A stretch of DNA of 64,000 nt from the IMG/VR virus record IMGVR_UViG_2579778660_000001; one strand, 5' to 3'. This document shows, piece after piece, positions 13,143-36,911 of the stretch. The DNA is from a virus (Duplodnaviria; Heunggongvirae; Uroviricota; Caudoviricetes). How positions within the stretch are numbered: position 1 is the stretch's first letter; each line of letters starts with the position of its first letter. The notes under the pieces are model-generated. The model saw nothing but the letters and a program-made list of their open reading frames with translations, was not told the DNA's origin and did no database searches. Both the position numbers and the translations under genes were made by a program.

Positions 13143-13340
13143 ATGGACATCATGCAGGCGGTAAAAAAAATCAGGGAAGAACAGGCTGAAGTGTGCCGCC
13201 GTAAAGCATGGAGTGTTGGTGTATGGGCCTGGCCTGATAATTACTCTACTACCGGATGGTTTTGTATTAATGGACTCCAGATCCGGGAAGTTGATTTATC
13301 GACGGCTGATATAGTCGGTAATGATTGGTTCGTGACTTGA
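13143..13340 (+). CDS. DUF2829-like small protein, 65 aa
   Basis: GGAGGTGAG RBS with ATG at 13143; motifs A.VCRRKAW and C-terminal GNDWFV; occupies the slot where an antirepressor would be expected. Confidence 0.4.
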   Translation: MDIMQAVKKIREEQAEVCRRKAWSVGVWAWPDNYSTTGWFCINGLQIREVDLSTADIVGNDWFVT

Positions 13341-13348
13341 AGCGTGAT

Positions 13349-13373
13349 GCCCCGGCCTGGTCGGGGCTTTTTT
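13349..13373 (+). terminator. intrinsic terminator (gccccg-gcctggt-cggggc + TTTTTT)
   Basis: Strong GC hairpin and T run between convergent genes. Confidence 0.75.
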
Positions 13374-13858
13374 CATGCCTCATTAGTTGAGGTTGCTGCG
13401 TCTCCGACTGGTAACAGAGCGGTATTGCGTGGTTCGCCAGCAGGCCAGCGATAGCCAGACACTCTTGATGTTGGGAATGCGCGAATATTAACCGCATCCC
13501 CCTGGTTCCCACCCAGGACAAGCAGATCGCCATTGGCGCGGCGTCCGACAACGAAGCCTACGTGCCCACCGCCTACGCGGGTAAATACAACGATACATCC
13601 GTATGCCGGTGTATCTAATTTCTCGCCCCAATCCAGATAGGATTTTGCCGACTCAAATCTTGTTGAGCGGATGCCTACACGTTCCAGCATTGCACCGACA
13701 AATGCTGCGCACCACGGCGTTTCATCGTCTTTAATTCCGCCGCGCTTGATGTCGCGCCAAAACTGAACGATTTCAGGGTTGTGTTTAGCGCCTTTTATTT
13801 CAGTCAGGCCAATGTGCTTACGTGCTTCAATTAGCCAGCGAGGTTCAATGTTTGCCAT
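13373..13858 (-). CDS. CHAP-domain peptidoglycan hydrolase (Cys/His peptidase), 161 aa
   Basis: Catalytic-type motifs PWCAAFV (Cys) and GGHVGFVV (His); divergent from the DarB-like gene. Confidence 0.55.
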   Translation of the reverse strand: MANIEPRWLIEARKHIGLTEIKGAKHNPEIVQFWRDIKRGGIKDDETPWCAAFVGAMLERVGIRSTRFESAKSYLDWGEKLDTPAYGCIVVFTRVGGGHVGFVVGRRANGDLLVLGGNQGDAVNIRAFPTSRVSGYRWPAGEPRNTALLPVGDAATSTNEA

Positions 13859-13932
13859 ATTTTTTTCCGGTCATGGGTTAATAAGTAGGCAAACTATGGG
13901 GGGTATGTGATTTTGACGGTAGTATCGTCCCC

Positions 13933-16900
13933 GTGAAAATAACATTCTCCATACCCTCTCAACCGTACCGCATAGCGGATTTTTTACGGTTTAGAGGGGG
14001 TAATCCTTTGGATAAACTACTTCATTCAATCAGTGAAGCTTCCAGCTTAGGCGAACTGATTGAAATTGTTAGTCGGTTGCATAAATTACGTGCTGTTGCG
14101 ACCTTTGGCGTTAAGAAAGTCGATGGTGTCAGCATTCAAAAAACACGGCGGGCAGCAAACAACGCCGCAGTAGAGCTTCTTAATTCCCTTCCGCCCGGCT
14201 TCGATGGGGCGAAATTAACTGACGAACAGCGTCAGATTCTTGCCGGGTATACCGGTGAAGGCGGCCTGACAGATGGTGAGGGCAGCCAATACGAATACTA
14301 CACGCCACAGTTTATGGCTGAAGGTATATGGGATCTGTTTGCTGACTACGGTATTGATGGCGGGCACGTACTGGAACCATCAGCGGGCACAGGTATTTTC
14401 CAGGAGACAAAACGACAGGGCATGATAATGACCAGCGCCGAACTGTCTCCGATTTCCGGTCGAATAAACCAGCTTTTGCACCCGGAAGACGATGTGAATA
14501 TCGGGGCGTTTGAGGCGCTGGCGGCGAAAGACGCAATGTATGATCACGCTGTTGGTAACGTACCGTTTGGTGAAGGGCGTTCCGGTGTCGCCGGGCTTGA
14601 TCCGGCATATGCAAACGAGAAGAACGTTGGCAATTACTTTGTGCTGCGCACGATCGACAAGGTTAAGCCTGGTGGGCTTATCGTATTGGTGGTGCCGAAT
14701 GGCATGACCGATGGTACGAAATATAAAAAATTGCGCGATAAAGTCAGCCGTAAAGCGGAATTTTTGGGCGCACATCGTATGCCTTCCGGTACGTTCAGCG
14801 AATCCGGTACAGATACCGTGGTGGACGTATGGGTATTGCGTAAACACCCGGAAACCTTCCTGGAGATGATCCCCGACACGGATGATTCAACACTCAAATC
14901 GGCAAACGTCCTTTGGGATACCTTCCTCAAAGGAAAATGGTTTACAACCGAAGGGAAGCGATTTGTTTACGGCGACATGGAACGTACCAGCTTCCGCAAT
15001 ACCCTGGTGGTGAAAAAGGACGGTCGTGTATCCAATGAGTCGATGAAAACCGCGCTATCTCGTCGCTTTGATAGTCGCATCAATTGGGATTTGCTCGGCG
15101 TAACTACTCAGGCATGGCAGGGCGCGAAAGTGGGCGATAAACGCCTAGTAGGCGGCATCTGGCATGAGTTTGATGGCCTGAAATGGGTCAAGGACACGAC
15201 AACCAAATCCTCCGCGCTTGATGTAAGTCGATATGGTGTTTCGACATTCGGTGATCTGCAAACAACGTTCCAATCAACAAACGGCATTCTGGCTCTGTCA
15301 TGGGGGCAGATATCCGCGATCGCTTCCGACTATCCATCGGTTATCAGTGATGAAGTAGCGGCAATGATTCGCTTTGCTGGGAAACAACGCGAAAAAGACC
15401 GTGAGCGCATTATGCGCGGTGCGCTGATCGGGCAACTTATCAATAAAGCGCTGGATAAGCGTAACCTTGGTGAAAACGTCGATGATGAACTGGCTGATGC
15501 CGCACGTCTGACGGCTGCCGAAGTTGCTAAATATGGCCCACCACACGCCATTAAGCTAAACGACATTACCGAAGCGGGCGCGAAGAACTGGCTGACATTC
15601 ACCGGGAACGTCAATCAGGACGGTGAAGCATCCGATCTGCTGTCCGGACGGCTTGATGTTAGCAAAGGGGCTGCTGGTATTGATTTCACTCGTCCGGAAC
15701 AGGTTGTGACACACCTTTTCAGCGATGTTGCCCTTAATCCTATCAATCTTGATGACTTCCGCGAGGCGTTTAAAGGCGAACTGCCAGAAGACGACGATCA
15801 AGCACTGGAATACCTGGCGAAATTCGACGATATCGCTATTGATGGATATGGTTGCCTGCTACCGATGGGCCGTGCCACTAGCGGTGATATTAAATCAAAA
15901 GTGGCACTGCTGGTGGGCTGGCGAGACGCGTCCACAGGAGAGCGGAAGGCCAACTTTGAGCGCCAGCTTTCAAAAATCGAAGAGAAACGCACGTTTACAC
16001 CGCTGAACAAAGTCACGGTAAACCTTAACGCACGGTGGTTGGATCGCCGCCTGATAAAAGAGTTCCTGGCAGAGCAGGGCTATGACGAGTTTAAGTATAC
16101 AGAACCCGACCTTAAGGTTGAGAACGGCATTCTGGTATCCCCGGACGATTACGAAGGTAAGGACGGGGTATTTACTGGCTACCAGCTACGAACCGTAAAC
16201 GGCAAAAACGGGAACGAGTTCAAGAAAGCGAATAACAAAGATGGCTTCCTGAATCAGCTTGAGAACTACCTGAACGGTGTTAAACCGCGCGGACAGAACG
16301 CTAACGAGTACCTGGACAAAATCGCCCAGCTTGAGACGAGTTTTAACGACTGGTTAAGAACTCACCCGCAGGCAGACCAGATCGCCCGCGATTATAACGA
16401 CGCCTTTAACGGTTATATTCCATTTACCCATTCAGACGCACCCCTGGGGCTTGAAGGCATCAGCGGGAAACGTATACCGCTTTCTTACCAGAACGAAGAA
16501 GTTCGTCGTCTGTCGGAAGATGGGCGCGGGATTATGGGATTCGGAACTGGTTTGGGTAAAACGACGACCGCGCTGGCACTGGAAGCCTATAACTTTGAAA
16601 CCGGGCGAACCAAACGTACCTGTATCGTTGTTCCAAAGGCCGTATACCAGAACTGGTATCACGAGGCACAGAGCTTCTACAGTGCAGATGCCTTCGCCAA
16701 TATGATGTTTATCGGTCTGGACGAAGTGCGCGATGGTGACGGAAATATTCAGACTGCCCCAGTGCTCGACCAGGACGGCACCCCGCGACTTGATAACGAC
16801 GGCAATCCGATCACCCGTAATGTTGTTAAAGAATCCGCCAGTGCCGTTATCGCTCAACGCATGAACATGATCCCATCGTCGAACTGGCGAACGGTCATCA

Positions 16901-19900
16901 TGACAAAAGAGCAGTTCGCATCTATCCCGTTGCGCGATGAAACCATCGGAGAAAACTCACAGCAGGCTGTCTTTAATGCCGCCGAAATGGGGCGTCTTGA
17001 CCTGGCGTCAGGCAAGCACCGTGATGCGCAGAAGAAGAACAAGATTAAGGACCAGGCCGCGAATACCGGTACAGCGAAGAAGCAGAATATCCCGTACTTT
17101 GAGGATATGAACTTCGATAGCGTAATTGCCGACGAAGGGCACAACTACCGCAACTCCTTTGGTGCCGGGCGTGAAGCGGGGCAACTGGCATATTTACCTA
17201 ATCCGGCGGTATCCAAAATGGCCCGTGACATGGCTGTAAAAGCTGCGTACATGATGAAACGTCACAATGGGCGCGGCGTCGTAATGCTGACAGCAACTCC
17301 GCTGGTTAATAGCCCTATTGACGCCTTCAACATGCTGTCAACGGTGATCCCTCAGCACGAGTGGATGCACATGGGGATTATTACCCCTGACGACTTTGTC
17401 CGAGTGTTCGGTAAAACAGCCACTGTTCAGGTCCAGAAAATTTCTGGCGAAGTGGAAGAGAAACAGGGGCTGGTGGGCTTCCAGAACCTTGATGGTCTGC
17501 GTGGCATTTTCCACCGCTGGACAACGCTTAAAACGGCTTCCGATGTTGGTGCAACGGTAAAAATCCCGGATATCGTCGAAAACACCTTGCAGATCCCAAT
17601 GACTCCAGAGCAGCAAGCAGCTTATGAAGAGCTTCGTAAACGCGCGCAGGAGTTAAGTCGTGGTGATGACGTCACTGTCGATGATGAAGGCAATATCACT
17701 CGCGGGAAACCGGATGATTTCATTTTCTCTATCATTCGCGACATGGATAAGGTCGCTATCGACCCGGATCTTTACGCCAGCGCTATCACATTCCAGTTCC
17801 CTGTAGAACTTACTGAACAGGTGAAGTCTATAGCTAATAACCTACCAAAAGTGGCTGGTGGGAAAGCGGCAGACGATGCAGAAGAAGCAGAGGAGGATGC
17901 GACCGGAGGCCTGGTCAGTACCCGTACCAGCAAGGTTGTAGCTACAACATTTAGTGAGCATCCAAATCACGTCGAATTGCGTGCCAGCATTGACCTGGAG
18001 GCTGAAATACTCAAGGCAATTGCTGATGCAGGCATCGACATGAAACAGGTGTCACACCCGATCCCGCCTAAGTATGCCGCACTTATCGAGAACCTTCGTG
18101 AAGGGCTTAAGAACGGTAAGCAAATTATCTTTATCGACGAGAAAGCCCAGCACCAGAAACTACGTCGCATCATTGCCAGTGCGTTGCAAATGCCAGAGCA
18201 GGAGATAGGCATTATCAATGCTACGACTGTTAGCCAGGCTGGTGGTGTTAAGCTGAAAAAGGTCAAAAAACCGACCGAACCGACGCCAAACAAAGACGGT
18301 GAATACAAAGAAGGCGCATGGGAAACCTACTACAGTAAACTGGCCCAATATGAGGATTATCTCTCTGCTAAAAATGATGCTGGCCTTGAGGGGATGGAAG
18401 GTATTGCTGCCGACTATAACGAAGGGCGCACGCAAATCATTATCTGTAACAAGAAAGCCGAAGTAGGTATCAACCTGCATATTGGAACGACCGATATTCA
18501 CCACCTGACACTACCCTGGACTCCTGCCAGTATCGACCAACGAAATGGGCGCGGTGCGCGCGTAGGTTCTCCGCAAGAGAAGGTTAATGTTCACTATTAT
18601 TGTGGCAAAGGCACATTCGATGACTTCCGTCTGGATACGCTTAAACGTAAGAAAGACTGGATCAAGATGGTGATGACCTCCGATATGTCAGAGATCGCCA
18701 ATGGTGATGCGGATGACGCTGATGAACGCGCCATTATGCTGGCGGCAAATCCGGAAGAACGACGCGCAATTATGGCTCGTCAGTCGAAAGAACGTGAGGA
18801 ACGCCTGCGACTTAAAGCGCAACGCGAAGCCAATAATGCTCTCGATAACTACCTGAAAGCGGCGAATGCTGCCGGGAAGGATATCGGCATGATGGAGGCA
18901 GAACTGAAAAGCGCGATGGAGCAGGCGCAACGATACCAGAGTGATCTGGATGGACTGATTAAGAGCGGCATCAACAAAAACGGACAGAAATATACGCTTT
19001 CAGCACTAAGCAAAGCTAAAAAAAGAGTGCGTGAATTGCGATTTGCAATCACCAGGGCGAAGGACGCGGATACTGTTATGAAACGCTCTCGTGGTGATGT
19101 GGAGCGTGCTATTAAGTCTGGTGTGCTGGATATCAGTATCGATGTTATTCAGAACCCGCAGGAGTATATGCGCACTGGCAAGAACATCCTGTTGCATAAA
19201 GGTAGTTACTACCGTGCAGTCATTGATGCTGAATACGAGACAACGGCGATTGTACGCGTGACACAAATTGAGGGCGAAAAAGCGCAATACACCTGCCGCG
19301 TCGCCTGGCTGGATAGAGCAAGTCGCAACTCTCGTTCTCCTGGCTCAACCATGACATTACCGTTTGACTCAGTGGTTGAAGCGGTAACATTTGAAGAGGG
19401 GGTGGCTGAATCACGAGAAATAGCGGCACGTGGTGTTCAAAGCCACCAGCTTTCAACCTCTCTTTCTCGCGATCAATTCTATGACGCTATTCGTAGCGGT
19501 GTTATGCGGGTAACTGGGAAAGATCGTGGCGGTTGGCAAGGAGCACCGGATGTAAACTATTGGGCTTATCGTAACGCCAATGGTCAGATTCAAATGGCCT
19601 TTACCTATGGCGGGATGATTGGTCAAAAAATTAGCGCATCTGGAAGTGACGAGATAGCACCTGAACAATGGATTTATCCTGATGTAAACGACGAAGCATT
19701 AAAACGCGAAGTCGCGAAAATCCAGACAGGTGATAACCCACTTCGTATTTCAGAGGCAGAAGGTTTTCTCCGTGCATTGTTTGGCTTCGATTATGAGCAA
19801 GGTATGGAAGCATGGGGCGCTCAGGCCACTATGGATGATGTGGTCAAGGCGTTCGATGGCTGGATGGCAGGGCGCGATCTCTCCGGGCGTTCACTTGAAA

Positions 19901-20850: not shown

Positions 20851-20886
20851 CAGATATGGAGCGGCCTCGAAAGAGGCCGAATTAAA

Positions 20887-21321
20887 ATGACAACATTGAT
20901 CGACACAGTAAAACCAACGGAATCCTACCTTGAGGACATTTTGCCGCAGGCGCTCAATGGCAGGAGTGAAGAGGCATTTCTGGATGCATATCTGAATGGC
21001 ATGGTGGAAAGGCTGAAACGAGATCCACAGCTTTATCACCTTTATGGGCCGTGGTGGCCTGCGCTTAAAACGTTATTGCTGGAGCGCGGCGACATATCAT
21101 TTGGACAAGTTGTAGATAGTGATGTGGCAGAGATCTACAAAATGAGTCGCCCGGCGCTTACGGTTTTGGCTGGGCATCTGTATTCGAGCGATCGCCTGGA
21201 AAATGACGCGGTATACAATCCTGTTCATGCTCTGGAAGTCGCGCTTTATGCTGATGATACAGAGCCATACGTATACACAAGTTACGACGAGTCTATAGAG
21301 AAATATCGAATCGTGGAGTAG
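20887..21321 (+). CDS. hypothetical protein, 144 aa (darB operon partner)
   Basis: Tightly linked 37 nt after the darB stop; acidic; no recognisable motif. Confidence 0.45.
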   Translation: MTTLIDTVKPTESYLEDILPQALNGRSEEAFLDAYLNGMVERLKRDPQLYHLYGPWWPALKTLLLERGDISFGQVVDSDVAEIYKMSRPALTVLAGHLYSSDRLENDAVYNPVHALEVALYADDTEPYVYTSYDESIEKYRIVE

Positions 21322-21323
21322 CC

Positions 21324-21563
21324 ATGCGAAAGAATCGTAGGTTTACGATCGACGACTTAAAAGCGTACTCACAAGGGAAGGGATACGCCCTTGAATACCA
21401 CCGTTATAAGCGAGTATTTACCCTGCGGCATATAGAAAACCCTTCGAAATGGGGATGGATTTATTTTCCGCACACTGACGATAAGCTGGTGGGGCTTGTT
21501 GATGATTTATCCTATGAAGGATGGATGATTGCTATCGACAAGGCGGTTACGGAAATTAACTAA
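21324..21563 (+). CDS. hypothetical protein, 79 aa
   Basis: Starts 3 nt after the upstream stop; Trp/Tyr-rich. Confidence 0.4.
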   Translation: MRKNRRFTIDDLKAYSQGKGYALEYHRYKRVFTLRHIENPSKWGWIYFPHTDDKLVGLVDDLSYEGWMIAIDKAVTEIN

Positions 21564-21758
21564 CCGGATAAAGTAAACCATTAAAAATAACAAGTTGGGT
21601 AAATGACATACAATTTACCCGGCTTGTTGACCCGCATCACCATTTATTCTAAAAACAAGTCCGACCTGTTGCATTCGCCTATCTCTTTAGTAGTATTCCC
21701 CTCGATTTTGATAAAGCTAACGATCTTGTTATTATCGTGTTCATGATTTAAGGAATTT

Positions 21759-21775
21759 TGTGTTAGAAAATTGAT
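21759..21775 (+). promoter_or_regulatory. operator-like site TGTGTTAGAAAATTGAT overlapping the start of the VRR-NUC gene
   Basis: Motif copy. Confidence 0.5.
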
Positions 21776-22217
21776 GCGAAGACGCAGGCATCATAGTGCG
21801 TATTCTGAAATATCCCCGCACGCTGCTGCACTGAGAGAGTTAGAAAGAAATCCTGACTTATTAAAACGGAATTACGAACATTACGAACAGGTTCGCGTTC
21901 TGGATTGGCTGTATCGCAACATGCGATACGTGTATGAGCACACACACTCAACACCGAACGGCGGCCTGAGAGGCAAAAGGACAGCCATTAAGATGGTGGC
22001 AGAAGGTCAGAAGAAGGGCTATCCGGACCTTTCTATTGACCTTGCTCGTGGTGGGTATCACGGAATGCGCATTGAGATGAAGCACGGGAGAAACCGTCTG
22101 ACTCCCGAACAGCTCGTCTGGATGACTCGCCTCACGGAAGCAGGCTATTACTGCTTTGAGGCGCGCAGTGCCGATGAAGCCATAAAAGCTATCACGGAAT
22201 ATGTAAATCTTGATTAA
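21774..22217 (+). CDS. VRR-NUC family nuclease, 147 aa
   Basis: PD-(D/E)xK-type motifs GYPDLSI and IEMK; ATG at 21774 (track start at TTG 21771). Confidence 0.6.
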   Translation: MRRRRHHSAYSEISPHAAALRELERNPDLLKRNYEHYEQVRVLDWLYRNMRYVYEHTHSTPNGGLRGKRTAIKMVAEGQKKGYPDLSIDLARGGYHGMRIEMKHGRNRLTPEQLVWMTRLTEAGYYCFEARSADEAIKAITEYVNLD

Positions 22218-22231: not shown

Positions 22232-22432
22232 TTGCGTTTACTTAACGTGGCTGAACTTATCCCTGCAGGAACTAATGCTATCGCTCGGCGTCGCTCATGG
22301 CAGCAGGCTCTATGTATTGAGATCTCGAAACGTATCAATGGAAGTTTTGAAGCTCGCAATATTGTTACTGGCGATAAGGTTCACATAACCCCGGAAAGTG
22401 CAAGCGCTGATGATTGGGAGTTTGTACATTGA
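22232..22432 (+). CDS. DUF2829-like small protein, 66 aa
   Basis: Motifs AIARRRSW and C-terminal ADDWEFV. Confidence 0.4.
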   Translation: MRLLNVAELIPAGTNAIARRRSWQQALCIEISKRINGSFEARNIVTGDKVHITPESASADDWEFVH

Positions 22433-22445
22433 GCAAAAAATATTA

Positions 22446-22728
22446 TGTGAGTCTGGCGTTCGCTGACGATGCGGGGAGGACGCGGAGTATCACGTTGAGC
22501 ACACCGGTTAAGGCTGTGACAGCGCCGTTAATCCGTGAAGCTCTCAGAGAGCTGGAATTGGGTGAAAACTCGGCACTGTTGTCGGTTAGTTGGTTAGGGA
22601 AAATGTCAGAGAAACAATACGTGGATGGAGTTACCCCAATAACAGTAATGAGGCTACTTTCATTGCTGCAATGGGCCATCGTACCTGTATTTATCGCGTA
22701 TCTTATTTATGAGGTTGCAACACAGTAA
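22446..22728 (+). CDS. small membrane-anchored protein, about 94-99 aa
   Basis: C-terminal transmembrane helix; start ambiguous (TTG 22429 or GTG 22446); followed by a terminator. Confidence 0.4.
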
Positions 22729-25284: not shown

Positions 25285-25360
25285 GATGGTGTAGCTCAGC
25301 GGTTAGAGCGGTTGACTGTTAATCAACGGGTCGATGGTTCAAATCCATCCACCATCGCCA
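25285..25360 (+). tRNA. tRNA-Asn (anticodon GUU)
   Basis: Cloverleaf folded by hand: acceptor gatggtg/caccatc, D arm gctc/gagc, anticodon loop CUGUUAA, T loop TTCAAAT, encoded CCA. Confidence 0.85.
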
Positions 25361-25362
25361 AT

Positions 25363-25438
25363 GCCGGTTTAGCTCAGTTGGTAGAGCGCCTGCCTTGTAA
25401 GCAGGATGTCAGCGGTTCGAGTCCGTTAACCGGCACCA
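25363..25438 (+). tRNA. tRNA-Thr (anticodon UGU)
   Basis: Acceptor gccggtt/aaccggc, anticodon loop CUUGUAA, T loop TTCGAGT, encoded CCA; 2 nt after tRNA-Asn. Confidence 0.85.
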
Positions 25439-27452: not shown

Positions 27453-27528
27453 TGGCCCTTTAGCTCAGTGGTTAGAGCTGGCGACTCATAATCGCACGGT
27501 CACCGGTTCAAGTCCGGTAGGGGCCACC
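27453..27528 (+). tRNA. tRNA with anticodon CAU, ileX-like (tRNA-Ile2, lysidine type)
   Basis: Sequence ggccctttagctcagtggttagagc...gactcataatcgc...ggttcaagtcc...ggggccacca closely resembles E. coli ileX (recalled); clean cloverleaf. Confidence 0.8.
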
Positions 27529-27983
27529 ATATTTGGTTGTAACACGGCGTATGGCACATGCGTCGTTAGCGGTCTGGTGACGTTAAAGGGGTTATCTTTT
27601 CCCCTAGCTCAGGCAACAAACCAGGTAGCCGGAATGTGCAAGCCCCGTTCATATCGTCGGACCGAGGACTCACCATCCTGGCGATTCGGTGTGACAGCCG
27701 GAAGAGTACGGCGCACAACAGGAAAAGGCGTTTAATTAACGCGAGCGCCGTTTCCGTTGTGGTAATTGCGGCTATGCGCTCGTGGCGAAGCCATTTTCAT
27801 TCATTGAGGTTCTGATAAGTGTCGTCGCCGGGCGTGGCTGACCTGGCAGGTGGAGGCACCACCGCCACAACTCCTTTCAATTCATCATATAGCCGCTCAG
27901 GCTGTAACCCTTAATTAATACGAAGTTTCGACATCTCTATCGGTTTAACCGAGAGATGGTCGCGCGTGTAAAAAGGAGACGTT

Positions 27984-28559
27984 ATGTTAATGGCGAACGA
28001 TAACGCATATGCAGAAGAAGATCTCATTTTGAGTGACTTCATAGGGAAGCAGGAACGCTGGACCCAAAAGCGAGAGGAACTTTACGCCTCATTAGTTCGC
28101 AAAGGCGTCAATATCGAAACCGCACAGAGCGGCGATATGACAGTGGTAAGCGTTGGATTGCACGGTGTAAGCGTGTCAGCAATCAATCATGAGCCATACG
28201 TTGCGTTATCCGAGTCAATGGTAAGGTTAGTTAAGTTCCTGAAGTACACAGAAGCGAATAATGTAATCATTGGCAAAAAGAATATCCCTTTTTCCTCGGC
28301 TTTTTACTGGATGATGAAAGGGCTTGATGCCAGGCGGACATCATGGCCTAAAGGGAGCTATATATCGATGTTCCGTGGCAGCATTGGCAGCAAAGAAAAG
28401 CTCTTCGAATTCTTGCCGGAAGAGGCATTCGATATTGTGGAAGGGTGCGATGTGATGGTGATGCCTCGCCTGGTAATGATGAATGGTGATTTACAGGCGC
28501 AGACAGACTGGTTTGCAACTGGTGTGGATATTATCGCGACTGACTGGGAGGCTTTCTGA
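27984..28559 (+). CDS. hypothetical protein, 191 aa
   Basis: AAAAGGAGA RBS; long ORF. Confidence 0.5.
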   Translation: MLMANDNAYAEEDLILSDFIGKQERWTQKREELYASLVRKGVNIETAQSGDMTVVSVGLHGVSVSAINHEPYVALSESMVRLVKFLKYTEANNVIIGKKNIPFSSAFYWMMKGLDARRTSWPKGSYISMFRGSIGSKEKLFEFLPEEAFDIVEGCDVMVMPRLVMMNGDLQAQTDWFATGVDIIATDWEAF

Positions 28560-28951
28560 TGTACGGGACTACCAAATTAAGCACTCAACAGGCCACCAAT
28601 ATGGAGTGGTCTATCGCTAACTGTAAGATCGTGTCATGCAATGCCACGCGTACTGATGTGGGCCATAAAAGCACTATAACAGGCTATCTGGTAATGACCA
28701 CCAGGGGGATGAGGGTTAGATTTCGCTGGAAAGCAGAGCAAGTAACGCCATTCAGAGAGCCATCAATGCCGCTGCAGGTTGAGCAGGATTATCTATGTTT
28801 ACCAGAAATAGATGGCGGAATGCTGGTGGAGTCTGATGGTAGTAAGGCTGATTTTGAAGCCAATTTGAAGCTGGCACAGGCCGTAATCAATAGTTATCGC
28901 GGACAGTGGATCGCAAAAGTGAAACATGTTGTTCGTTTGTCTCGCTGGTAG
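28559..28951 (+). CDS. hypothetical protein, 130 aa
   Basis: TGATG coupling to the upstream gene. Confidence 0.45.
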   Translation: MYGTTKLSTQQATNMEWSIANCKIVSCNATRTDVGHKSTITGYLVMTTRGMRVRFRWKAEQVTPFREPSMPLQVEQDYLCLPEIDGGMLVESDGSKADFEANLKLAQAVINSYRGQWIAKVKHVVRLSRW

Positions 28952-29059
28952 CATTAGATATTTAGTATTAATTTTCTAATACAATCATCTTTTTGCCAGT
29001 CTATACAGTTTTAACATTCTCATTATCATCCCCTCGGTCATTTCCTGCCCGGGGGATTA

Positions 29060-29452
29060 ATGGAACAAATCAGCAGCGCAGAAATTGCGGATATCATGAT
29101 TAGGGCTGACTGCTATCTGACAGTCACTGAAATTACCATTCTCGCCAAAGAAAAATACCCTCATCTCCATGTTTCACGGGTAAGTGTAACTAACATCATT
29201 CGTCATTTTGTTCGTTCAAGCAGGGCAATCTGTGAGCTTGATGATCGCGTTTACCCACGAAAATACTGGTTGCATGGCCTGAACGGATATCAGTTCAAGG
29301 TGCGTGGGCGAACCCCTGAATACGGCAGTTTACTGGTTAAAAACTGTAGCAGGAAATCAGTCGAACAGGCGCGAAAAGAGCAACGAGAGCTGGTGGACAT
29401 GGCGAATAAGCTGTGGAATGCCGCCGTTAAAAAGCGTGGTGTTGCTTTATGA
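29060..29452 (+). CDS. hypothetical basic protein, possibly a late-promoter activator (Lpa-like position)
   Basis: Immediately 5' of pacA and overlapping its start; functional call by position only. Confidence 0.3.
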   Translation: MEQISSAEIADIMIRADCYLTVTEITILAKEKYPHLHVSRVSVTNIIRHFVRSSRAICELDDRVYPRKYWLHGLNGYQFKVRGRTPEYGSLLVKNCSRKSVEQARKEQRELVDMANKLWNAAVKKRGVAL

Positions 29453-30813
29453 GTCTGGTTAATTGGGAGGAGCACCGCGCCCGCTTTATAGCGTTGCGTG
29501 AAGAAAAAGGGATCACTGTAAAGGAATACTGTGAGGAGCATGGCCTTAGCTTCAATACAGCCAGAAAGCATCTCAATATGAAAAAAAATGAGGTGCGGTC
29601 GCAGGTAAAGACAACAAAAAAAAGCACCAAATCACCTGAAAAAAAACGGGCAGGAAGAGCAACAAAAAAGCAGGAAGAGGGTGCAGGAAAAACAAAATTT
29701 ACAGAAATTGACAATTCGCAGGGCGCAGGTTCTTTCCGAAGTATGCCGAGAAAGAAAACTTCGGATCATGAAAATAATTCAAATAATAACAATGAGATAA
29801 AAGAATCCGTCAGGAGATCATTACGCGAAAAAATGGCGAAAATGATCCCCGAAGAAGATAAAAGCGCCCCAAAAATTGAGGGATCTTCTGCAATGATCCC
29901 TGACGGTGCTGTGCAGCGTGCCACATTGCCAACTACGAATGTAGCTCGCGATATGATGAAGAACGGCGCAGAAGAACACCTGCGGTTAGCAATTCAAATG
30001 GCGCAAGAGCGCGCACTTCAGTATCAAAGCATTGTTGATCAGGAGGCCGAACGTCTACAGGCGGAAATAGACACCCTGGGCGATAAAGAGCCAGAAGGAA
30101 TGCACCCTGGGCAGCGCCTTCTCGGTCTAATCAGTGACGCGGCCTACTACATGAATGATTTTATCAGTAGGTTGGCAGCTATTTATCAGTCCGAACAAAA
30201 GCTGCGACAGGGGGATGAAAAGCTTCGTCAGAGCGCTCGCCAGCAAGCATTCAAAGAGGCTGAGGCCAGAGAAAAACTCGAATTAGCACGCCTACAGGCC
30301 GAACAGCGTGGCAAAGAGATTGAATATCGCATTGGCGCTGACGCACGCGCAGCCAGAGTTATCGCCGCCGCTATACGTATGCGTGAGCGCGAGGAACTGG
30401 ATGATATCGGTGTTGCTGAATACATCGAGCGCCAGGGTGTCAGCGTCCCGGCTATCCTCGCGGCGCGCGCGGCGAAAGCTATCACTCTTCTCGAACCACC
30501 TGTTTCTGACGTCAATGATGTTGATGATGAACAGCTGGACAAAGAGGCAAGGGAGTTTGCAACGCTTCAGGCTAACCATCCGCAATGGCTGGCAGAGCGC
30601 CGGGCGGATGTGGCAACCATTGTTGAAGAATTGGGGTGCGGAGATTACGACCGCAATGGCGAGCGTAAAGCTGGAGAATTCGAGGCCAACGACGAAGAGC
30701 TGGATATTGACCCTTCGGCAACGGCTGAAATTTACGGTGATTATGATGCATCTGATGCAGGGTATGACGCCGGAGATGATGATATCGCGATAGAACCGCC
30801 GGAGGATGATTAA
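29449..30813 (+). CDS. pacA: terminase small subunit / pac-recognition protein (PacA-like), 454 aa
   Basis: ATGA overlap with the upstream gene; basic N-terminal region and highly acidic C-terminus; directly precedes the terminase ATPase; GATC-rich segment inside the gene. Confidence 0.6.
   Translation: MSLVNWEEHRARFIALREEKGITVKEYCEEHGLSFNTARKHLNMKKNEVRSQVKTTKKSTKSPEKKRAGRATKKQEEGAGKTKFTEIDNSQGAGSFRSMPRKKTSDHENNSNNNNEIKESVRRSLREKMAKMIPEEDKSAPKIEGSSAMIPDGAVQRATLPTTNVARDMMKNGAEEHLRLAIQMAQERALQYQSIVDQEAERLQAEIDTLGDKEPEGMHPGQRLLGLISDAAYYMNDFISRLAAIYQSEQKLRQGDEKLRQSARQQAFKEAEAREKLELARLQAEQRGKEIEYRIGADARAARVIAAAIRMREREELDDIGVAEYIERQGVSVPAILAARAAKAITLLEPPVSDVNDVDDEQLDKEAREFATLQANHPQWLAERRADVATIVEELGCGDYDRNGERKAGEFEANDEELDIDPSATAEIYGDYDASDAGYDAGDDDIAIEPPEDD
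29760..29900 (+). promoter_or_regulatory. candidate pac cleavage region (GATC cluster)
   Basis: Five GATC sites (29764, 29816, 29844, 29882, 29895) within about 135 bp inside pacA, as hexamers of the form NGATCN; P1 pac is a Dam-methylated hexamer cluster inside pacA. Confidence 0.35.
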
Positions 30814-32321
30814 TGGCTGGCAGGCGCAAGGTTAAATGCGTCACCAGAGATCCACGCTGGCGCGATATGGTAATCAAATACCGCTACAACTTTACCCAGG
30901 CTGTTGTCGATATTTTTGGGATGTTCCCCTCCCACCAGCAGCAGCAGATCATTCAGTCCGTACAGGAAACGGGGAGTAGGACTACCGTCACGTCCGGACA
31001 CGGAACGGGGAAGTCGTCCCTTACCGCGATGTTGCTGTTGATTTTTATGATCCTGTTCCCCGATGCCCGTGTCATCATTGTTGCTAACAAGATAGGCCAG
31101 GTAAAAACAGGCGTATTCAAATACGTTAAACAGTATTGGGCGAATGCAGTTAAGCGTCATGGGTGGTTGCAGACCTATTTTGTCCTCTCTGACACCATGT
31201 TTTATGAGCGCTCCCGTAAGGGGATTTGGGAAGTTCTCTGCAAAGGTTATCGACTCGGCAACGAAGAAGCGCTGGCGGGGGAACACGCGGCACATTTGCT
31301 TCTAATTCTGGATGAAGCATCTGGTATATCTGATAAGGCGATCGGCGTAATGACCGGTGCTCTTACTGAAGAAGATAACCGGATGTTGATGCTATCCCAG
31401 CCAACAAGGCCAAGTGGTTATTTCTACGATTCGCACCATTCTCGAGCAAAAACCCCAGACAACCCGAAAGGGATCTGGACAGCAATTGTTCTTAACTCGG
31501 AAGAATCACCGTTCGTCACACCACAATTCATCAAGGAGAAGCTTCTGGAATATGGCGGGCGCGATTCTATTGAGTACATGGTCAAGGTGCTTGGTCAGTT
31601 CCCACGAGAAATTAACGGCTATTTGCTTGGTCGTGATGAATGCGATCGCGCTGCTCGCCGCAAGGTGTTGTTGGAGAAAAACTGGGGATGGGTGGCAACG
31701 GCTGACGTTGGTAATGGGCGAGATAAGTCGGTCCTCAACATCTGCAAGGTATCAGGTCACAGGGATAAGCGGCGCGTTGTTAACTTTAAGGTAATGGAGA
31801 TGCCTGGCACTATGGACCCATTGGCCTTTGCTGACTTCATATATAACGAATGTACGCCGGAAAAATACCCGAATATAACAATCGCGGTTGATGCTGATGG
31901 TTTTGGTTCTGATACGTGTGCGCAGTTGGTGCGTCGTGGTGCGAACCCGGTACGTATTCGGTGGGGAAAACCCATGTTTGCGAACAAAGACAGGGAGCGA
32001 TTTGTTAATCAGCGAGCCTACGCAAATATTATGGCGCGTGATGCCATAAAGTCAGGGCGTATGCGGATAGACAGTGACTCTAAAACGGCAGAGCAAGCGT
32101 CAAAAATCCCCTTTTTACTGAATGAAGAAGGGAAAATGGCGATGATGCGCAAAGAGCACATGCGGCAAAAGCTAAACATCAAATCGCCTGACCGATGGGA
32201 TACCTACTGCTTCACTATGCTGGTGGACTATGTGCCTGCTAATGAAGATATTGGTGCCGAAATGGCAACTTTCCGAGATCAGGTTCTGGCGGATATCGAA
32301 ATGCCGGATCTGGATATATAA
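30813..32321 (+). CDS. pacB: terminase large subunit (PacB-like), 502 aa
   Basis: Walker A GHGTGKSS and Walker B LLLILDEASG; TAATG overlap with pacA; size close to P1 PacB. Confidence 0.75.
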   Translation: MAGRRKVKCVTRDPRWRDMVIKYRYNFTQAVVDIFGMFPSHQQQQIIQSVQETGSRTTVTSGHGTGKSSLTAMLLLIFMILFPDARVIIVANKIGQVKTGVFKYVKQYWANAVKRHGWLQTYFVLSDTMFYERSRKGIWEVLCKGYRLGNEEALAGEHAAHLLLILDEASGISDKAIGVMTGALTEEDNRMLMLSQPTRPSGYFYDSHHSRAKTPDNPKGIWTAIVLNSEESPFVTPQFIKEKLLEYGGRDSIEYMVKVLGQFPREINGYLLGRDECDRAARRKVLLEKNWGWVATADVGNGRDKSVLNICKVSGHRDKRRVVNFKVMEMPGTMDPLAFADFIYNECTPEKYPNITIAVDADGFGSDTCAQLVRRGANPVRIRWGKPMFANKDRERFVNQRAYANIMARDAIKSGRMRIDSDSKTAEQASKIPFLLNEEGKMAMMRKEHMRQKLNIKSPDRWDTYCFTMLVDYVPANEDIGAEMATFRDQVLADIEMPDLDI

Positions 32322-32323
32322 AA

Positions 32324-32340
32324 GCCCCGCAGTGCGGGGC
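32324..32340. terminator. bidirectional terminator-like hairpin (gccccgc-agt-gcggggc) between convergent genes
   Basis: Perfect 7-bp GC stem; weak T run. Confidence 0.4.
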
Positions 32341-32349
32341 CGGTGGTGA

Positions 32350-33387
32350 TTACCAGAGCTTTGCGGCGCGCTGCGTTTGGGGGAATGTGTATCCGTAACG
32401 TTCTTCGATTGCTTTGCCGTATTTTTTACGCGCTTCATTCAGTTTGATGCCGGTCAGGTCGTCTCCAGAGGCCATCATTACGTCTAACAATTCCAGATCC
32501 ATTTTATCCAGCCTTGCCATTGCTTCACGCGATGTACGAATCTTACGTTCAATGATATGGCGAATAGCCGGATCGGCATCCTCCAGCATCTTAGCTGATT
32601 TCTGCTTAAGGTTTTCGTTGCGGATATCGATGTTCCTTAAGATATACGACTTCGCAACGTAGCTTGGCTGATGTTTTTCCAGGTCACGAACACGATATAA
32701 GCTAAAGTCGCCGAGAAGGCTGCAAGGCACCGATTCGACGCCAGAATAAATTGTAATGCTACGGCGTTCACCAACATTATTGACAACGGGGATCGTTGTC
32801 TTCGGTAGTTTTGCGAAAACGAATGCGCCATGTGCGCCAACTCTAAAGCGAGAAAGGGCATTGCTGCCTTCGATGTTTGTTGTCAGCACAACATCTGTAT
32901 ATGCCTCTTTACGCGCCCGGTAGACCTCGCCTTCAGGCTCAGCTTCAAAGAAGCGCTGTTCTTCTTCAAGAGCACCTACGATTTGAGAAAAAACCCTATT
33001 TTTCAGGCTTTTCTTTATGATTTTGTCGTATTTTTTGAGCAATTGTTCACGTGTAAATGTACGTGTTGTTGTAGCGCTTTGCACAACAACATGCGTGCTT
33101 TGATTGGTGTCCTCAATGATGAATGGGATCGGAGAATATACAGACTCAACAATGTTAGACGCTTTGCCGTCAGCATTACGGCACAAGTCAACAAAGGCTT
33201 TCCATTCTGCGAGGCACTTTTCAGCTTCTTCTAGTACATTTTGGTCGTGTGTTAGTGCAACGTGGCGGAATTCCTCGCCAGCATAACTGGTATCATGGAA
33301 AACAGAGTTTGCGACCACCAGCTCTTTCCACCGTTCAGCGGTTTGCAGGAACCGTTTGTACTCTTTCTCGATCGACTTCTTACTCAT
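32350..33387 (-). CDS. candidate C1-type immunity repressor by position (c1 slot between pacB and the rox-dre unit), 345 aa
   Basis: Position matches c1 in the P1-family pac-c1-lox arrangement; an operator-like motif lies in its own upstream region; no motif-level identification possible. Confidence 0.4.
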   Translation of the reverse strand: MSKKSIEKEYKRFLQTAERWKELVVANSVFHDTSYAGEEFRHVALTHDQNVLEEAEKCLAEWKAFVDLCRNADGKASNIVESVYSPIPFIIEDTNQSTHVVVQSATTTRTFTREQLLKKYDKIIKKSLKNRVFSQIVGALEEEQRFFEAEPEGEVYRARKEAYTDVVLTTNIEGSNALSRFRVGAHGAFVFAKLPKTTIPVVNNVGERRSITIYSGVESVPCSLLGDFSLYRVRDLEKHQPSYVAKSYILRNIDIRNENLKQKSAKMLEDADPAIRHIIERKIRTSREAMARLDKMDLELLDVMMASGDDLTGIKLNEARKKYGKAIEERYGYTFPQTQRAAKLW

Positions 33388-33410
33388 TATTCCTACTCGA
33401 TTTAGTTTTC

Positions 33411-33427
33411 TAACATAAAATCCCTAT
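33411..33427 (-). promoter_or_regulatory. operator-like site ATGTTAGAAAACTAAAT upstream of the c1-slot gene
   Basis: Motif copy 24 bp upstream of the start at 33387. Confidence 0.55.
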
Positions 33428-33600
33428 GACAAATCTATGTCGAATAACAGAGTGAGTAAAGGATCGAACTATGATTTTTTTGTCATCAACTTTAGAAAAC
33501 CAACCGTTGAAACCACACTTCGCAAATTAAAGACCATGAAGGCAACGTGTTACTGTCCATCATCAATCTATGATGGATTACAAAAAAAATCGGCATTTTA

Positions 33601-33634
33601 TAACTTTAAATAATGGGGATTATTTAAAGTTAGG
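33601..33634 (+). other. rox-type (lox-like) site-specific recombination site
   Basis: TAACTTTAAATAAT-GGGG-ATTATTTAAAGTTA: 14-bp perfect inverted arms around a 4-bp spacer. The arms match the rox site of the Dre recombinase as I recall it (spacer GCCA there), and share ATAACTT...ATA with loxP arms. Confidence 0.8.
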
Positions 33635-33784
33635 CTATAATCATGTGTAGATGAACAGTATTGACATCACTGAAAATACGTGCCTCGAATCAAAGGCTTG
33701 TATTTTGAAAATTAACTTATAGCTACCCTGTCATTTTTATATTTTTCGCGTAGCGTCATATGTATATAGAGGCGAAATAGTTTC

Positions 33785-34813
33785 ATGGGAGAATTAATTA
33801 TCTCTGGCAGTTCCGGTGGTTTTCTGCGCAACATTGGCAAAGAGTACCAGGAAGCCGCAGAAAACTTTATGCGGTTCATGAATGACCAGGGGGCTTATGC
33901 GCCGAATACTCTGCGCGACCTCCGGTTGGTGTTTCATTCCTGGGCGCGCTGGTGTCACGCTCGCCAGCTCGCCTGGTTCCCGATCTCACCAGAAATGGCC
34001 CGCGAGTATTTTCTTCAGCTGCATGATGCCGATCTGGCTTCGACCACCATTGATAAGCACTACGCCATGCTGAACATGCTGCTTTCGCATTGTGGCCTTC
34101 CGCCACTTTCGGATGATAAAAGTGTTTCTCTGGCTATGCGGCGCATCCGGCGCGAAGCGGCAACTGAAAAAGGCGAACGAACAGGCCAGGCTATACCGCT
34201 GCGGTGGGACGATCTGAAACTGCTCGACGTCCTGTTGTCCAGGTCAGAACGGCTGGTGGACCTGCGCAACCGGGCTTTTCTCTTTGTTGCATACAATACG
34301 CTGATGCGTATGTCGGAAATCTCGCGTATTCGTGTAGGAGATCTGGACCAAACAGGTGACACTGTCACGCTACATATTTCACACACGAAGACAATAACGA
34401 CCGCCGCCGGGCTTGATAAGGTGCTTTCCCGTCGCACTACCGCTGTGCTGAATGACTGGCTGGATGTTTCCGGGCTTCGCGAACATCGTGACGCAGTGCT
34501 GTTCCCGCCGATACACCGTAGCAATAAGGCCAGGATCACGACAACGCCCCTTACTGCACCTGCAATGGAGAAAATATTCAGCGACGCCTGGGTGTTGCTG
34601 AATAAAAGAGATGCTACGCCAAACAAAGGGAGATACCGGACGTGGACCGGGCATAGTGCACGCGTCGGGGCCGCTATTGATATGGCTGAAAAGCAGGTGT
34701 CTATGGTGGAGATCATGCAGGAAGGAACCTGGAAGAAACCGGAAACACTTATGCGGTATCTGCGCCGTGGCGGTGTGTCTGTGGGGGCTAATAGCCGCCT
34801 GATGGATTCGTAA
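33785..34813 (+). CDS. dre: Dre-like tyrosine site-specific recombinase (Cre homologue), 342 aa
   Basis: Extended colinearity with P1 Cre (WARWC..WFP, LNMLLS..GLP..SD..VSLAMRRIRRE, AYNTLMRMSEISRIRV, GHSARVGAA..MA, W...LMRYLR), catalytic R/H-x-x-R/W/Y in place; rox-type site 150 bp upstream. Confidence 0.9.
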   Translation: MGELIISGSSGGFLRNIGKEYQEAAENFMRFMNDQGAYAPNTLRDLRLVFHSWARWCHARQLAWFPISPEMAREYFLQLHDADLASTTIDKHYAMLNMLLSHCGLPPLSDDKSVSLAMRRIRREAATEKGERTGQAIPLRWDDLKLLDVLLSRSERLVDLRNRAFLFVAYNTLMRMSEISRIRVGDLDQTGDTVTLHISHTKTITTAAGLDKVLSRRTTAVLNDWLDVSGLREHRDAVLFPPIHRSNKARITTTPLTAPAMEKIFSDAWVLLNKRDATPNKGRYRTWTGHSARVGAAIDMAEKQVSMVEIMQEGTWKKPETLMRYLRRGGVSVGANSRLMDS

Positions 34814-34814
34814 A

Positions 34815-34831
34815 TTAAATTTCTAACACAT
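34815..34831 (-). promoter_or_regulatory. operator-like site ATGTGTTAGAAATTT
   Basis: Between the dre stop and the next operon. Confidence 0.45.
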
Positions 34832-34886
34832 CTTTTTAGATTAACGCCTTTGATGTAAAGTACCCTCGCCTATTTAGGAGGGTGCT

Positions 34887-35231
34887 TTGCAGAGTCAAAT
34901 CACGGAATCAAGACGCTTCAAGGTGGATGGTTACACCGTAACCTTCGCTGCTGGTGTTAAGAACAGTCATGCTGTCGTTGTGTTCGGCATCATGACCGGG
35001 CTTGAGGCCGTCCCTGTGTTTACCCTCGAAAAAAACTGGCGAAATCTGGAGGAAGCAGAAAGCTACGTCCGGAAAGTAACCATCATTGCCGCCGAAAAAC
35101 TCCTGGCCCACTATCAGGAAAATTATCGCACTATGGTCGAGAAGATTAATCTCGCTTTCACTCGCCCCACTACCGGCTTTATTGCACCGGATACTAATGC
35201 AGGTCGCTATCCTGCAAGGGGGCGTCGGTGA
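34887..35231 (+). CDS. hypothetical protein, 114 aa
   Basis: GGAGGG RBS with TTG start. Confidence 0.4.
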   Translation: MQSQITESRRFKVDGYTVTFAAGVKNSHAVVVFGIMTGLEAVPVFTLEKNWRNLEEAESYVRKVTIIAAEKLLAHYQENYRTMVEKINLAFTRPTTGFIAPDTNAGRYPARGRR

Positions 35232-35704
35232 AAACTTATTACACATCTCTGAATTGTTACCCGTCTTCCTATCCAGAATTATCCGGGAAGCTGTTAGCTC
35301 TATTAGCTAAAGCACCTACGGAATGGTTTAAGCCAGTCGTTATCAATCCACACTTCCTGGATTACGGATCTGTTCGCACTCGTAACGAACTCAAAAACCT
35401 ACTGGCGCATGGATTCATTCGACACCGTGCCGCGAAAGGCTATCAGTTAGCGATTGCGCCAGAAGAGGCTGTGCGGCTATTCGCATATCGTGACAGCCAG
35501 ACAAAAGCTCGGGTAATAGCTCAAATACTTCATAACGGCAGCACCTATGCCCGCCAGTTTGGCGGCGACACGTCGCAGTTCTTGCGGGCGGTGCGATCGC
35601 TGGAGGAGCAAGGAGTTATTGAAAGTTCCTGTCTTCCTGTTCCTACCGTTCCACATATCAAACGTCGGGTTTACACCTTCACGCAGAGAGCTAAAAAACA
35701 ATGA
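35228..35704 (+). CDS. hypothetical protein, 158 aa
   Basis: Overlaps the neighbouring genes at both ends (operon). Confidence 0.45.
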   Translation: MKTYYTSLNCYPSSYPELSGKLLALLAKAPTEWFKPVVINPHFLDYGSVRTRNELKNLLAHGFIRHRAAKGYQLAIAPEEAVRLFAYRDSQTKARVIAQILHNGSTYARQFGGDTSQFLRAVRSLEEQGVIESSCLPVPTVPHIKRRVYTFTQRAKKQ

Positions 35705-36195
35705 TTTACGTAAAAGTGAAACGCCTACATCCGGCAGCAAAACTTCCAGCTTATGCCACCTCCGGATCGGCGGCGATGGATTTTGAGGCTGTTGAAATAA
35801 AACCATGCGTCGATAGCAATGGTGCAATTTCCTCAAGCTGGTGGGTGTATACCGGACTGGCTATGGAGATCCCGCCCGGCTGGTGTCTGAAACTCTATCC
35901 GCGATCCGGATTGGGCTGCAAAAAACATACTCGCCTGGCTAACTGCGTAGGAATTATCGACTCCGATTATCGCGGCGAAATCATGGCAAAACTGATTACT
36001 GATCCCGGCGGGGAAGGCGTTTGTCTCAAGCCTGGAATGGCTGTCATGCAAGGAATTTTTGAACGTGTTGAACAAGTCTCACTAGTCGAGGTTGAGGAAC
36101 TCAACGAAACGGAACGTGGTGCTGGTGGCTTTGGTAGCACATCGGAAGGCCACTTTGAAATTAAGCGTTCACCGCTTCAGTACGAAAAGTTATAA
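35701..36195 (+). CDS. dut: dUTP diphosphatase (trimeric dUTPase)
   Basis: Motifs PRSGLG, GIIDSDYRGE and C-terminal RGAGGFGSTS. Confidence 0.8.
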   Translation: MIYVKVKRLHPAAKLPAYATSGSAAMDFEAVEIKPCVDSNGAISSSWWVYTGLAMEIPPGWCLKLYPRSGLGCKKHTRLANCVGIIDSDYRGEIMAKLITDPGGEGVCLKPGMAVMQGIFERVEQVSLVEVEELNETERGAGGFGSTSEGHFEIKRSPLQYEKL

Positions 36196-36209
36196 GCAGA
36201 GAAAAGACT

Positions 36210-36911
36210 ATGAATAACATGGCAACGAAAGAGCTTTTTAAGTTCCTTCCCAAATACAAAGCTCACAAAAACGTTAGTGCATCGAAAATCAAAAATGTTG
36301 TTATTTTCGGAGTAACTGATGCCCCACTTTGGGGCAGCATCGAACTCGTTGAACCAAAAGGGGCAACAGTTTGTGTTGACGCAATGTTTTTACAAAAACA
36401 CCGACCAAAAACTGGCGGGTATCTGATCGTTTATGAAAACGGTTATCTGTTCTATGCCCCGGAGAAACCATTTGAGGAACGCTATGGCCTGGTTAACGAC
36501 GTCTCCAAAAATGGAACCACGGTCATCATTACGGATGACAACGGCGAGATGATTAATCTTACCGGGAGCGTAACTATTTCTGCTGGTGGCATCACCACCC
36601 AGCAAGAAGAAATCGACCTTGAAGCAGCCGACTTTTCTGACGCGCTGATGTGGCTGAAGGATGGCAAGAAAGTTGCCCGGCGCGGGTGGAACGGCGAAAA
36701 CCAATTCTGCTGGCTGGTTCCAGACAAACACGGCGCTTCAAGACTAACCCCTATAAAACATGCCATCAATGGAGAGCTTGAAATCAATTTCGACTCTCCT
36801 CTTGCTCCTTATGGTACGCATTTCGCTTTGAAAAATGCACAAGGTGTAGTTGTTCCGTGGGTGCCTTCTGTAGGCGACTTACTGGCATGTGACTGGTTTG
36901 TAGTGGAGTGA
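36210..36911 (+). CDS. two-domain protein with C-terminal DUF2829-like domain, 233 aa
   Basis: C-terminal segment FSDALMWLKDGKKVARRGWNGENQFCWLV...PWVPSVGDLLACDWFVVE matches the DUF2829 pattern. Confidence 0.45.
   Translation: MNNMATKELFKFLPKYKAHKNVSASKIKNVVIFGVTDAPLWGSIELVEPKGATVCVDAMFLQKHRPKTGGYLIVYENGYLFYAPEKPFEERYGLVNDVSKNGTTVIITDDNGEMINLTGSVTISAGGITTQQEEIDLEAADFSDALMWLKDGKKVARRGWNGENQFCWLVPDKHGASRLTPIKHAINGELEINFDSPLAPYGTHFALKNAQGVVVPWVPSVGDLLACDWFVVE

Follow-up and report, generated by a model that had tools for sequence, protein, structure and literature searches.

Tad2-family proteins and their probable minimal, insertion-less relatives in a P1/D6-type phage-plasmid

Introduction

Characterized proteins of the Tad2 family (PF11195, formerly DUF2829) are homo-oligomeric sponges that sequester the ADP-ribose (ADPR)-type signals produced by TIR proteins of the Thoeris defence. 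They are single-domain proteins of about 90–105 amino acids (aa), in which helix 1 is followed by strands 1–5, with helix 3 in the β4–β5 loop. Here we describe a set of Tad2-like proteins encoded by a phage-plasmid of enterobacteria, represented by a 64,000-nucleotide stretch of viral DNA (IMG/VR record IMGVR_UViG_2579778660_000001), the whole of which we call the window.

The Tad2 proteins with solved structures differ in the ligands they accept: SPO1 Tad2 (8SME) binds only glycocyclic ADPR (gcADPR), ModTad2 (8V3E/9EIB) binds histidine-ADPR (His-ADPR), and HgmTad2/AcrIIA7 (8KBI) and SptTad2 (8WJD) also bind cGG and cGAMP. The main residues holding gcADPR in SPO1 Tad2 are W25, N26, W73, and D79, while S76 and other residues coordinate waters; the equivalent residues of HgmTad2, W21/N22 and S90/T92/D93, have been validated by mutagenesis. 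The stretch between strands 2 and 3 is a known variable region of the family. The insertion located there forms, together with helix 2, a V-shaped dimer interface and, in HgmTad2 and SptTad2, the pocket for cyclic dinucleotides (CDNs), which HgmTad2 binds in its insertion after strand 2. According to Li et al., about 99% of Tad2 proteins have kept the gcADPR site.

Against this background, we consider it fairly likely that the phage-plasmid carries several genes of one small family that share the Tad2/DUF2829 fold and fall into two grades, namely long proteins that would act as sponges and minimal proteins whose role would be a different one, perhaps linked to the anti-repressor Ant.

Results

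A megablast comparison of three regions of the window with 50,697 phage records placed it close to Escherichia phage D6 (92–98% nucleotide identity), which is a P1-like plasmid prophage. By this measure the element is a P1/D6-type phage-plasmid of enterobacteria. An initial annotation of the window had singled out three open reading frames (ORFs) as DUF2829-like and as possible signalling-nucleotide sponges. All three are present, each on the plus strand, and are referred to here as proteins 1, 2, and 3 (Table 1). As a count, three is too low: a fourth gene, encoding protein 4, had been overlooked, and D6 carries a further copy fused to Ant, so that the Tad2-like set comprises four copies in the window and a fifth in D6. 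We call proteins 1 and 2 (65–66 aa), which probably join this set by remote homology, the minis, and proteins 3 and 4 the long proteins. The presence of four or five copies per D6-type genome fits the proposal in that annotation of repeated selection for the fold. We found nothing on the Tad2-like genes of D6 in the literature searched, and NCBIfam returned no match for any of the proteins.

Judged by its profile and sequence matches, protein 3 is a bona fide member of the Tad2 family, as had been proposed. Its C-terminal domain matches Pfam PF11195 over profile positions 2–73 of 73 (E = 1.3e-21; 77.4 bits, gathering score 25), and in the Protein Data Bank (PDB) it finds the sequences of ModTad2 (9eib, 4e-14), SptTad2 (3e-9), SPO1 Tad2 (8sme, 1e-8), and HgmTad2/AcrIIA7 (8kbi, 5e-8; 9kzr, 3e-7); its D6 homolog is already named “DUF2829 domain-containing protein” in RefSeq. 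All five SPO1 contact residues are kept (Table 2), and the β2–β3 insertion is about 30 residues long in both protein 3 and protein 4, a long insertion being a feature that protein 3 has in common with the CDN-binding Tad2 homologs. Most likely, protein 3 would behave like the characterized proteins, as a homo-oligomeric sponge for TIR-derived ADPR-type signals, and its insertion might also capture cyclic dinucleotides; capture of these signals would blunt Thoeris and perhaps CBASS as well.

The HgmTad2/AcrIIA7 matches also bear on another function for the DUF2829 proteins of this element, as AcrIIA7-like anti-CRISPRs and not signal sponges, and the first link proposed for DUF2829 was indeed to an anti-CRISPR. 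The Escherichia coli and Salmonella hosts have type I, not type II-A, CRISPR systems, which counts against such a function. Moreover, Li et al. failed to reproduce anti-Cas9 activity with HgmTad2 or its homologs, and Yirmiya et al. argue that the family is anti-Thoeris. On this literature evidence we set the anti-CRISPR reading aside as very improbable.

Protein 4 was found with a custom Tad2 hidden Markov model (HMM), built from 21 homologs of the protein 3 domain, among the 784 six-frame ORFs of the window (E = 2.9e-5). It also exceeds the Pfam PF11195 cutoff of 25 with 38.5 bits (E = 1.7e-9, residues 103–190), and on these matches it is a clear, if diverged, family member; among sequenced phages, only D6 has it. 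Whereas characterized Tad2 proteins consist of a single domain, proteins 3 and 4 both have N-terminal extensions, of 100–135 aa. Because protein 4 keeps W25, W73, and D79 but not N26, that is, three of the four main contacts, its ligand is probably different or modified. A sponge function is possible.

Assigning the minis is more demanding. The motif by which the initial annotation had joined proteins 1–3 does not fit all three in its literal form, because proteins 1 and 2 carry RRxxW where it had RR(K/G)W. A more permissive version, RR.{1,2}W...DW[EF][FV], does fit: among the 784 window ORFs it matches exactly proteins 1–3, and in a post hoc test on 200 shuffled sets of ORFs it had no match. 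Compared pairwise by BLASTP, the three proteins showed no significant similarity. Proteins 1 and 2 align collinearly with identical motif spacing, and the 12 sequences of the mini families are collinear in a MAFFT alignment in which I10, R19, R20, W23, D61, and W62 are invariant and G13 nearly so.

Relatives of the minis are few. Their D6 counterparts are both annotated as hypothetical, each mini falls in its own small PHROG without assigned function (phrog_7385 for protein 1, phrog_7206 for protein 2), and the two families are very narrow, a search space of 5.8 billion proteins yielding 3 and 5 clusters. Searched by tblastn at E≤10 against the 50,697 phage records, both minis found D6 only, the remainder being noise, and profiles of the mini families gave no Tad2 match among PDB sequences. 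An exhaustive phmmer search of 1.84 billion representatives with protein 1 recovered P0036 (E = 1.9e-7), a Rha-type anti-repressor of 313 aa that is 42% identical to protein 1 over its C-terminal 57 residues (256–312), and P0037 (E = 3.3e-4), a free-standing protein of 68 aa that itself has a sub-threshold match to the Pfam Tad2-like profile (14 bits, E = 0.076, positions 15–73 of 73). P0037 is encoded at 5001–5207 of L075, a 90.5-kb contig with ParM/StbA partition and tail-like genes, which looks like another phage-plasmid lineage with a free-standing mini-Tad2-like gene. Two candidates were rejected as spurious, namely P0035 from the exhaustive search, a PKD-repeat protein matching through a Trp-rich stretch, and the single match from a profile search of genome contigs, by eye an ordinary metabolic-enzyme ORF.

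The deeper profiles argue for remote homology between the minis and Tad2. Enlarged by P0036 and P0037, the protein 1 family scored 36% in hhalign (64 columns) against a narrow Tad2 profile. Against a broad profile of 61 non-redundant sequences, taken from the solved Tad2 proteins, 80 IMG/VR homologs, A3, and protein 4, it scored 81.8% (E = 1.1e-5) over 65 columns, its full length, with z = 8.0, 0 of 250 column shuffles reaching the score, and a reversed control of 10.5, equal to background. The combined mini family reached 74.8% (z = 9.4) against the same profile. Protein 2 would be reached by transitivity through the protein 1 family: the two families align with each other over 60 columns (hhalign 78%, z = 8.3), and the C-terminal domain of Ant matches the PHROG of protein 2 over its full length (E = 0.0069). 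ModTad2 matches one further family, phrog_643 (3e-5), to which protein 1 also has a weak match (0.42). In an anchored Needleman-Wunsch alignment, each mini was aligned end to end with a Tad2 position-specific scoring matrix, with free deletion only in the variable β2–β3 loop; the anchored form was used since free leading gaps allow the algorithm to skip the N-terminal helix. Protein 1 reached z = 5.6 and protein 2 reached z = 3.5 (0 of 300 shuffles each; positive control, z = 8.2), and of 250 small ORFs of the window these two took the top two ranks. By contrast with these deeper profiles, hhalign with the shallow native families was not significant (0.6–4%), and its -glob mode yielded only meaningless end-overlap alignments.

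Known Tad2 proteins approach the minis in size. Mycobacterium phage Curiosium gp4 (72 aa) and Acinetobacter phage XC38 gp28 (74 aa), both matched by the custom Tad2 HMM at about 1e-25, have almost no insertion, share the termini of the minis and the PDxxS motif after strand 2, and align with them almost collinearly; a DUF2829 protein of Pectobacterium phage CBB is only 66 aa long. Unlike the minis, Curiosium gp4 and XC38 gp28 keep GWNGKG and W73 (...VPWLASQTD...).

Several results weigh against this placement of the minis. Neither protein matched any Pfam family even at E≤10, so that the DUF2829 assignment of the initial annotation does not hold for them at the level of Pfam. Aligned directly with the broad Tad2 profile, the protein 2 family gave a non-significant 6% over 9 columns (z = 2.9; 4 of 250 shuffles). 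In a single-sequence null of 462 ORFs, the top ORF scored 21.5, protein 1 scored 20.1, and protein 2 scored 16.6; the minis are thus unremarkable as single sequences, so that the argument is built on the family profiles. Finally, fold searches with the AlphaFold2 model of protein 2 returned generic SH3/Tudor-like barrels and not Tad2.

As to the ORFs in that null, the one at 42202–42399 (minus strand), which outscores protein 1 in single-sequence hhalign, encodes 66 aa out of frame within a 281-aa ORF and was rejected as a chance match to the N-terminal motif only (KPGLQVERAGW). It serves as a warning that one motif alone is no evidence.

The structural predictions are compatible with the Tad2 reading of the minis without being specific to it. 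The protein 2 model is confident (predicted local distance difference test score [pLDDT] 83.6) and consists of a helix, four strands, a helix, and a strand, the order published for Tad2, while the protein 1 model is of low confidence (pLDDT 58.7). In a library of viral structures the best match of protein 2, a weak one (E = 0.015, TM 0.36), was the 66-aa CBB protein. The SH3/Tudor/PWWP-like matches had low scores and no sequence similarity, many unrelated families scored equally, and they probably reflect the generic geometry of a small five-stranded barrel.

In an alternative reading, proteins 1 and 2 would be lineage-specific small SH3/Tudor-like β-barrels unrelated to Tad2, with RRxxW...DW arising by chance or convergence and only proteins 3 and 4 in the family. 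We consider this unlikely. Three independent procedures gave the same-register, full-length, collinear profile alignment. The hhalign comparisons reached z = 8–9 with no shuffle out of 250 attaining it and reversed controls at background, and the match extends beyond the motifs of the initial annotation (VWAWPD/CWLVPx, WFCING/YFALKN, PDxxS). The weak Pfam match of the intermediate P0037, the existence of bona fide Tad2 proteins of 72–74 aa, and the identity of the top viral structural neighbor argue in the same direction. Remote Tad2 homology of protein 1 is therefore probable from the profiles, and the minis look like loop-less, stripped-down, very distant Tad2 relatives. They would correspond to the Tad2 core (helix 1, strands 1–5, helix 3) minus the β2–β3 insertion; they have the core residues G, R, W ... 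D-W in common with Tad2 and would share this order of elements with it.

The residues kept in the minis are mostly those of the fold core, that is, the Gly that precedes strand 1 and the Trp that follows it, the Arg, and the C-terminal D-W, while the alignments show both to be without the insertion and helix 2. Since they also lack W73 and N26, and protein 2 lacks D79 besides (Table 2), the minis are probably not canonical gcADPR sponges. For all four proteins, we infer ligand binding, oligomeric state, and biological role from such comparisons, and by them the sponge function suggested in the initial annotation is plausible in proteins 3 and 4, whereas in the minis it is doubtful.

One could nevertheless suppose that all four proteins, or at least the three named initially, are functional sponges tuned to different signals (gcADPR isomers, His-ADPR, cyclic oligonucleotides) and together form an anti-Thoeris/anti-CBASS battery of decoys. 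Tad2 homologs do vary in ligand specificity, the operon of protein 1 is expected to be expressed early, and the minis keep the pocket Trp after strand 1, to which the protein 1 family adds S76 and D79; the elevated ratio of nonsynonymous to synonymous substitutions (dN/dS) of protein 1, given below, could reflect an arms race. Yet the minis have lost one of the two Trp ligand contacts (W73), N26, and the whole insertion with its dimer interface and CDN pocket, they are clear outliers to a gcADPR site conserved in about 99% of Tad2 proteins, and the fusion to Ant indicates another role. A decoy battery is thus distinctly unlikely in our view. The lost pocket residues and the Ant fusion instead suggest that the role of the minis differs from that of sponges and is perhaps linked to the anti-repressor.

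This link is visible in the genetic context. Protein 1 ends an immI-type operon headed by C4 sites and C4 RNA (Rfam RF03163, 54.4 bits, and RF01695, 68.8 bits, at 12546–12751, both above gathering thresholds), so that one copy does lie in the immunity operon, as had been reported. The order is C4 sites and C4 RNA, icd, an ant remnant, protein 1, and a terminator, and in D6 it is icd-ant-orf17. Compared with D6, ant in the window has suffered a 587-bp frameshifting deletion (∼13024–13143; compare L001 2724–3431) that leaves a 9-codon stub and a 34-aa tail ORF, with icd and orf17 intact. In P0036, the fused mini domain is preceded by a “MSEAEPRNKRWYHPKMG” segment, and it is this segment that the remnant matches.

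D6 and many D6-like IMG/VR contigs (loci L026–L045; D6 NC_050154, 74022–74963) contain a further icd-ant module, whose Ant (orf82 in D6), of about 313 aa, has the mini domain fused to it as the C-terminal ∼60 residues. In orf82 and P0036 these residues are 37–43% identical to protein 1, and the fused domain matches phrog_63 (4e-16) and phrog_7385 (7e-16). By sequence, the fusion joins the equivalents of two genes, ant and orf17, that are separate and adjacent in the other immI module. The D6-type Ant belongs with the Rha/Ant-type anti-repressors (Pfam Phage_pRha; phrog_63), from which the window differs in that its mini domain is a free-standing gene and both of its ant genes are absent or destroyed: at 52131–53253 (compare L158 2665–5434), ∼1.1 kb replaces the D6 icd-ant(orf82)-orf81-orf80-simB segment. 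With both anti-repressors gone, the element may be locked in the plasmid state or depend on another route of induction. The replacement segment has two minus-strand ORFs, 52275–52667 and 52688–53311, whose N-termini are signal-peptide-like by eye.

Constraint differs among the mini domains. The one fused to Ant is under strong purifying selection (dN/dS 0.08–0.11), protein 2 has values of 0.16–0.21, and protein 1 has values of 0.45–0.93 on few substitutions. Among protein 1 orthologs (loci L004–L025; P0002, P0003), some pairs show only nonsynonymous changes, and frameshifted or truncated variants are found in the databases. The weak constraint on protein 1 could reflect an arms race or decay. 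Because the mini domain is the strongly constrained C-terminus of a Rha-type Ant in D6-like phages and protein 1 directly follows ant in the immI operon, the minis would most likely be small binding or oligomerization modules, with protein 1 probably tied to anti-repressor function.

The same context would accommodate two more ambitious proposals. In one, the mini domain is the ligand sensor of the immI circuit, coupling a defence signal to the anti-repressor and the lysis-lysogeny decision; the Ant C-terminus, or the separate orf17, would then bind a host immune or stress nucleotide, the sponge fold having been repurposed as a sensor. In the other, the minis are a new class of minimal sponge with a differently built pocket. 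We regard both as long shots.

Among the other Tad2-like genes (Table 1), protein 2 lies in a cluster of morphogenesis genes, in the same order as in D6, between a pmgM-like VRR-NUC gene (21771–22217) and a pmgR-like gene (ORF 22414–22728). The pmgM homolog, on the plus strand, has a VRR-NUC nuclease domain (Pfam, E = 9e-6) and is labeled “putative morphogenetic function protein” in D6. The end of the protein 4 gene overlaps the start of the next ORF (28559–28951), and lpa (29060–29452) lies downstream. Protein 3 is preceded by dut (35701–36195) and followed by an isaA-like gene (36918–37718), as is orf114 in D6. In the window protein 3 has 233 aa, compared with 146 aa in D6, where the N-terminus is shorter, and it has an N-terminal half that resembles phage SJ46 more closely. 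This half (about aa 9–126; nucleotides 36210–36620) resembles Dec-type capsid decoration proteins, matching phage L Dec (6e3c, E = 0.009) and, by tblastn, a protein from a Pseudomonas phage labeled “capsid decoration protein” (3e-8).

Table 1. Tad2-like genes and associated features of the window
Feature	Position	Strand	Description
C4 target sites a1/b1	12546-12598	+	Rfam
C4 antisense RNA	12666-12751	+	Rfam
icd homolog	12799-13023	+	D6 alignment/annotation
ant remnant	13039-13143	+	34-aa C-terminal-tail ORF; D6 alignment
Protein 1	13143-13340	+	65 aa from ATG (66 aa from GTG at 13140); D6 orf17; mini-Tad2-like; last immI gene
Intrinsic-terminator-like hairpin	13349-13367	+	8-bp stem, 7 G-C pairs, then TTTTTT; 9 nucleotides past protein 1 stop
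Protein 2	22232-22432	+	66 aa, TTG start; D6 orf11; second mini paralog
tRNA genes (three)	25285-25357, 25363-25435, 27454-27526	+	Rfam
Protein 4	27984-28559	+	191 aa; D6 orf6 (“hypothetical”); ∼100-aa N-terminal region without assignment and diverged Tad2-like domain, aa 103-190
Protein 3	36210-36911	+	233 aa; D6 orf114 homolog; N-terminal Dec-like region and C-terminal Tad2-like/DUF2829 domain
Protein 3 Tad2-like domain	about 36630-36905	+	aa 141-232; Pfam PF11195

Table 2. Residues at SPO1 Tad2 ligand-contact positions (long proteins mapped by SPO1 numbering, verified internally; minis mapped from hhalign alignments)
SPO1 residue	Protein 3	Protein 4	Protein 1	Protein 2
W25	W	W	W	W
N26	N	lost (gap/Pro)	S or gap	Q
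W73	W	W	V	V
S76	S	T	S	T
D79	D	D	D	S

Discussion

Few phage counter-defence families are as widespread as Tad2, and the range of its known ligands (gcADPR, His-ADPR, cyclic dinucleotides) is still growing. A single P1/D6-type phage-plasmid is seen here with several diverged Tad2-like copies, two of them bearing unexplained N-terminal domains, and the fold seems to reach down to forms of 65 aa without the insertion, which escape present annotation by Pfam and RefSeq. In relatives of the element, this minimal form is physically joined to an anti-repressor. The practical gain is a better annotation of D6 orf6, orf11, orf17, and the C-terminus of orf82. If the minis bind ligands, they would define a minimal Tad2 sponge; if they serve Ant, a counter-defence fold would be linked to the control of prophage induction.

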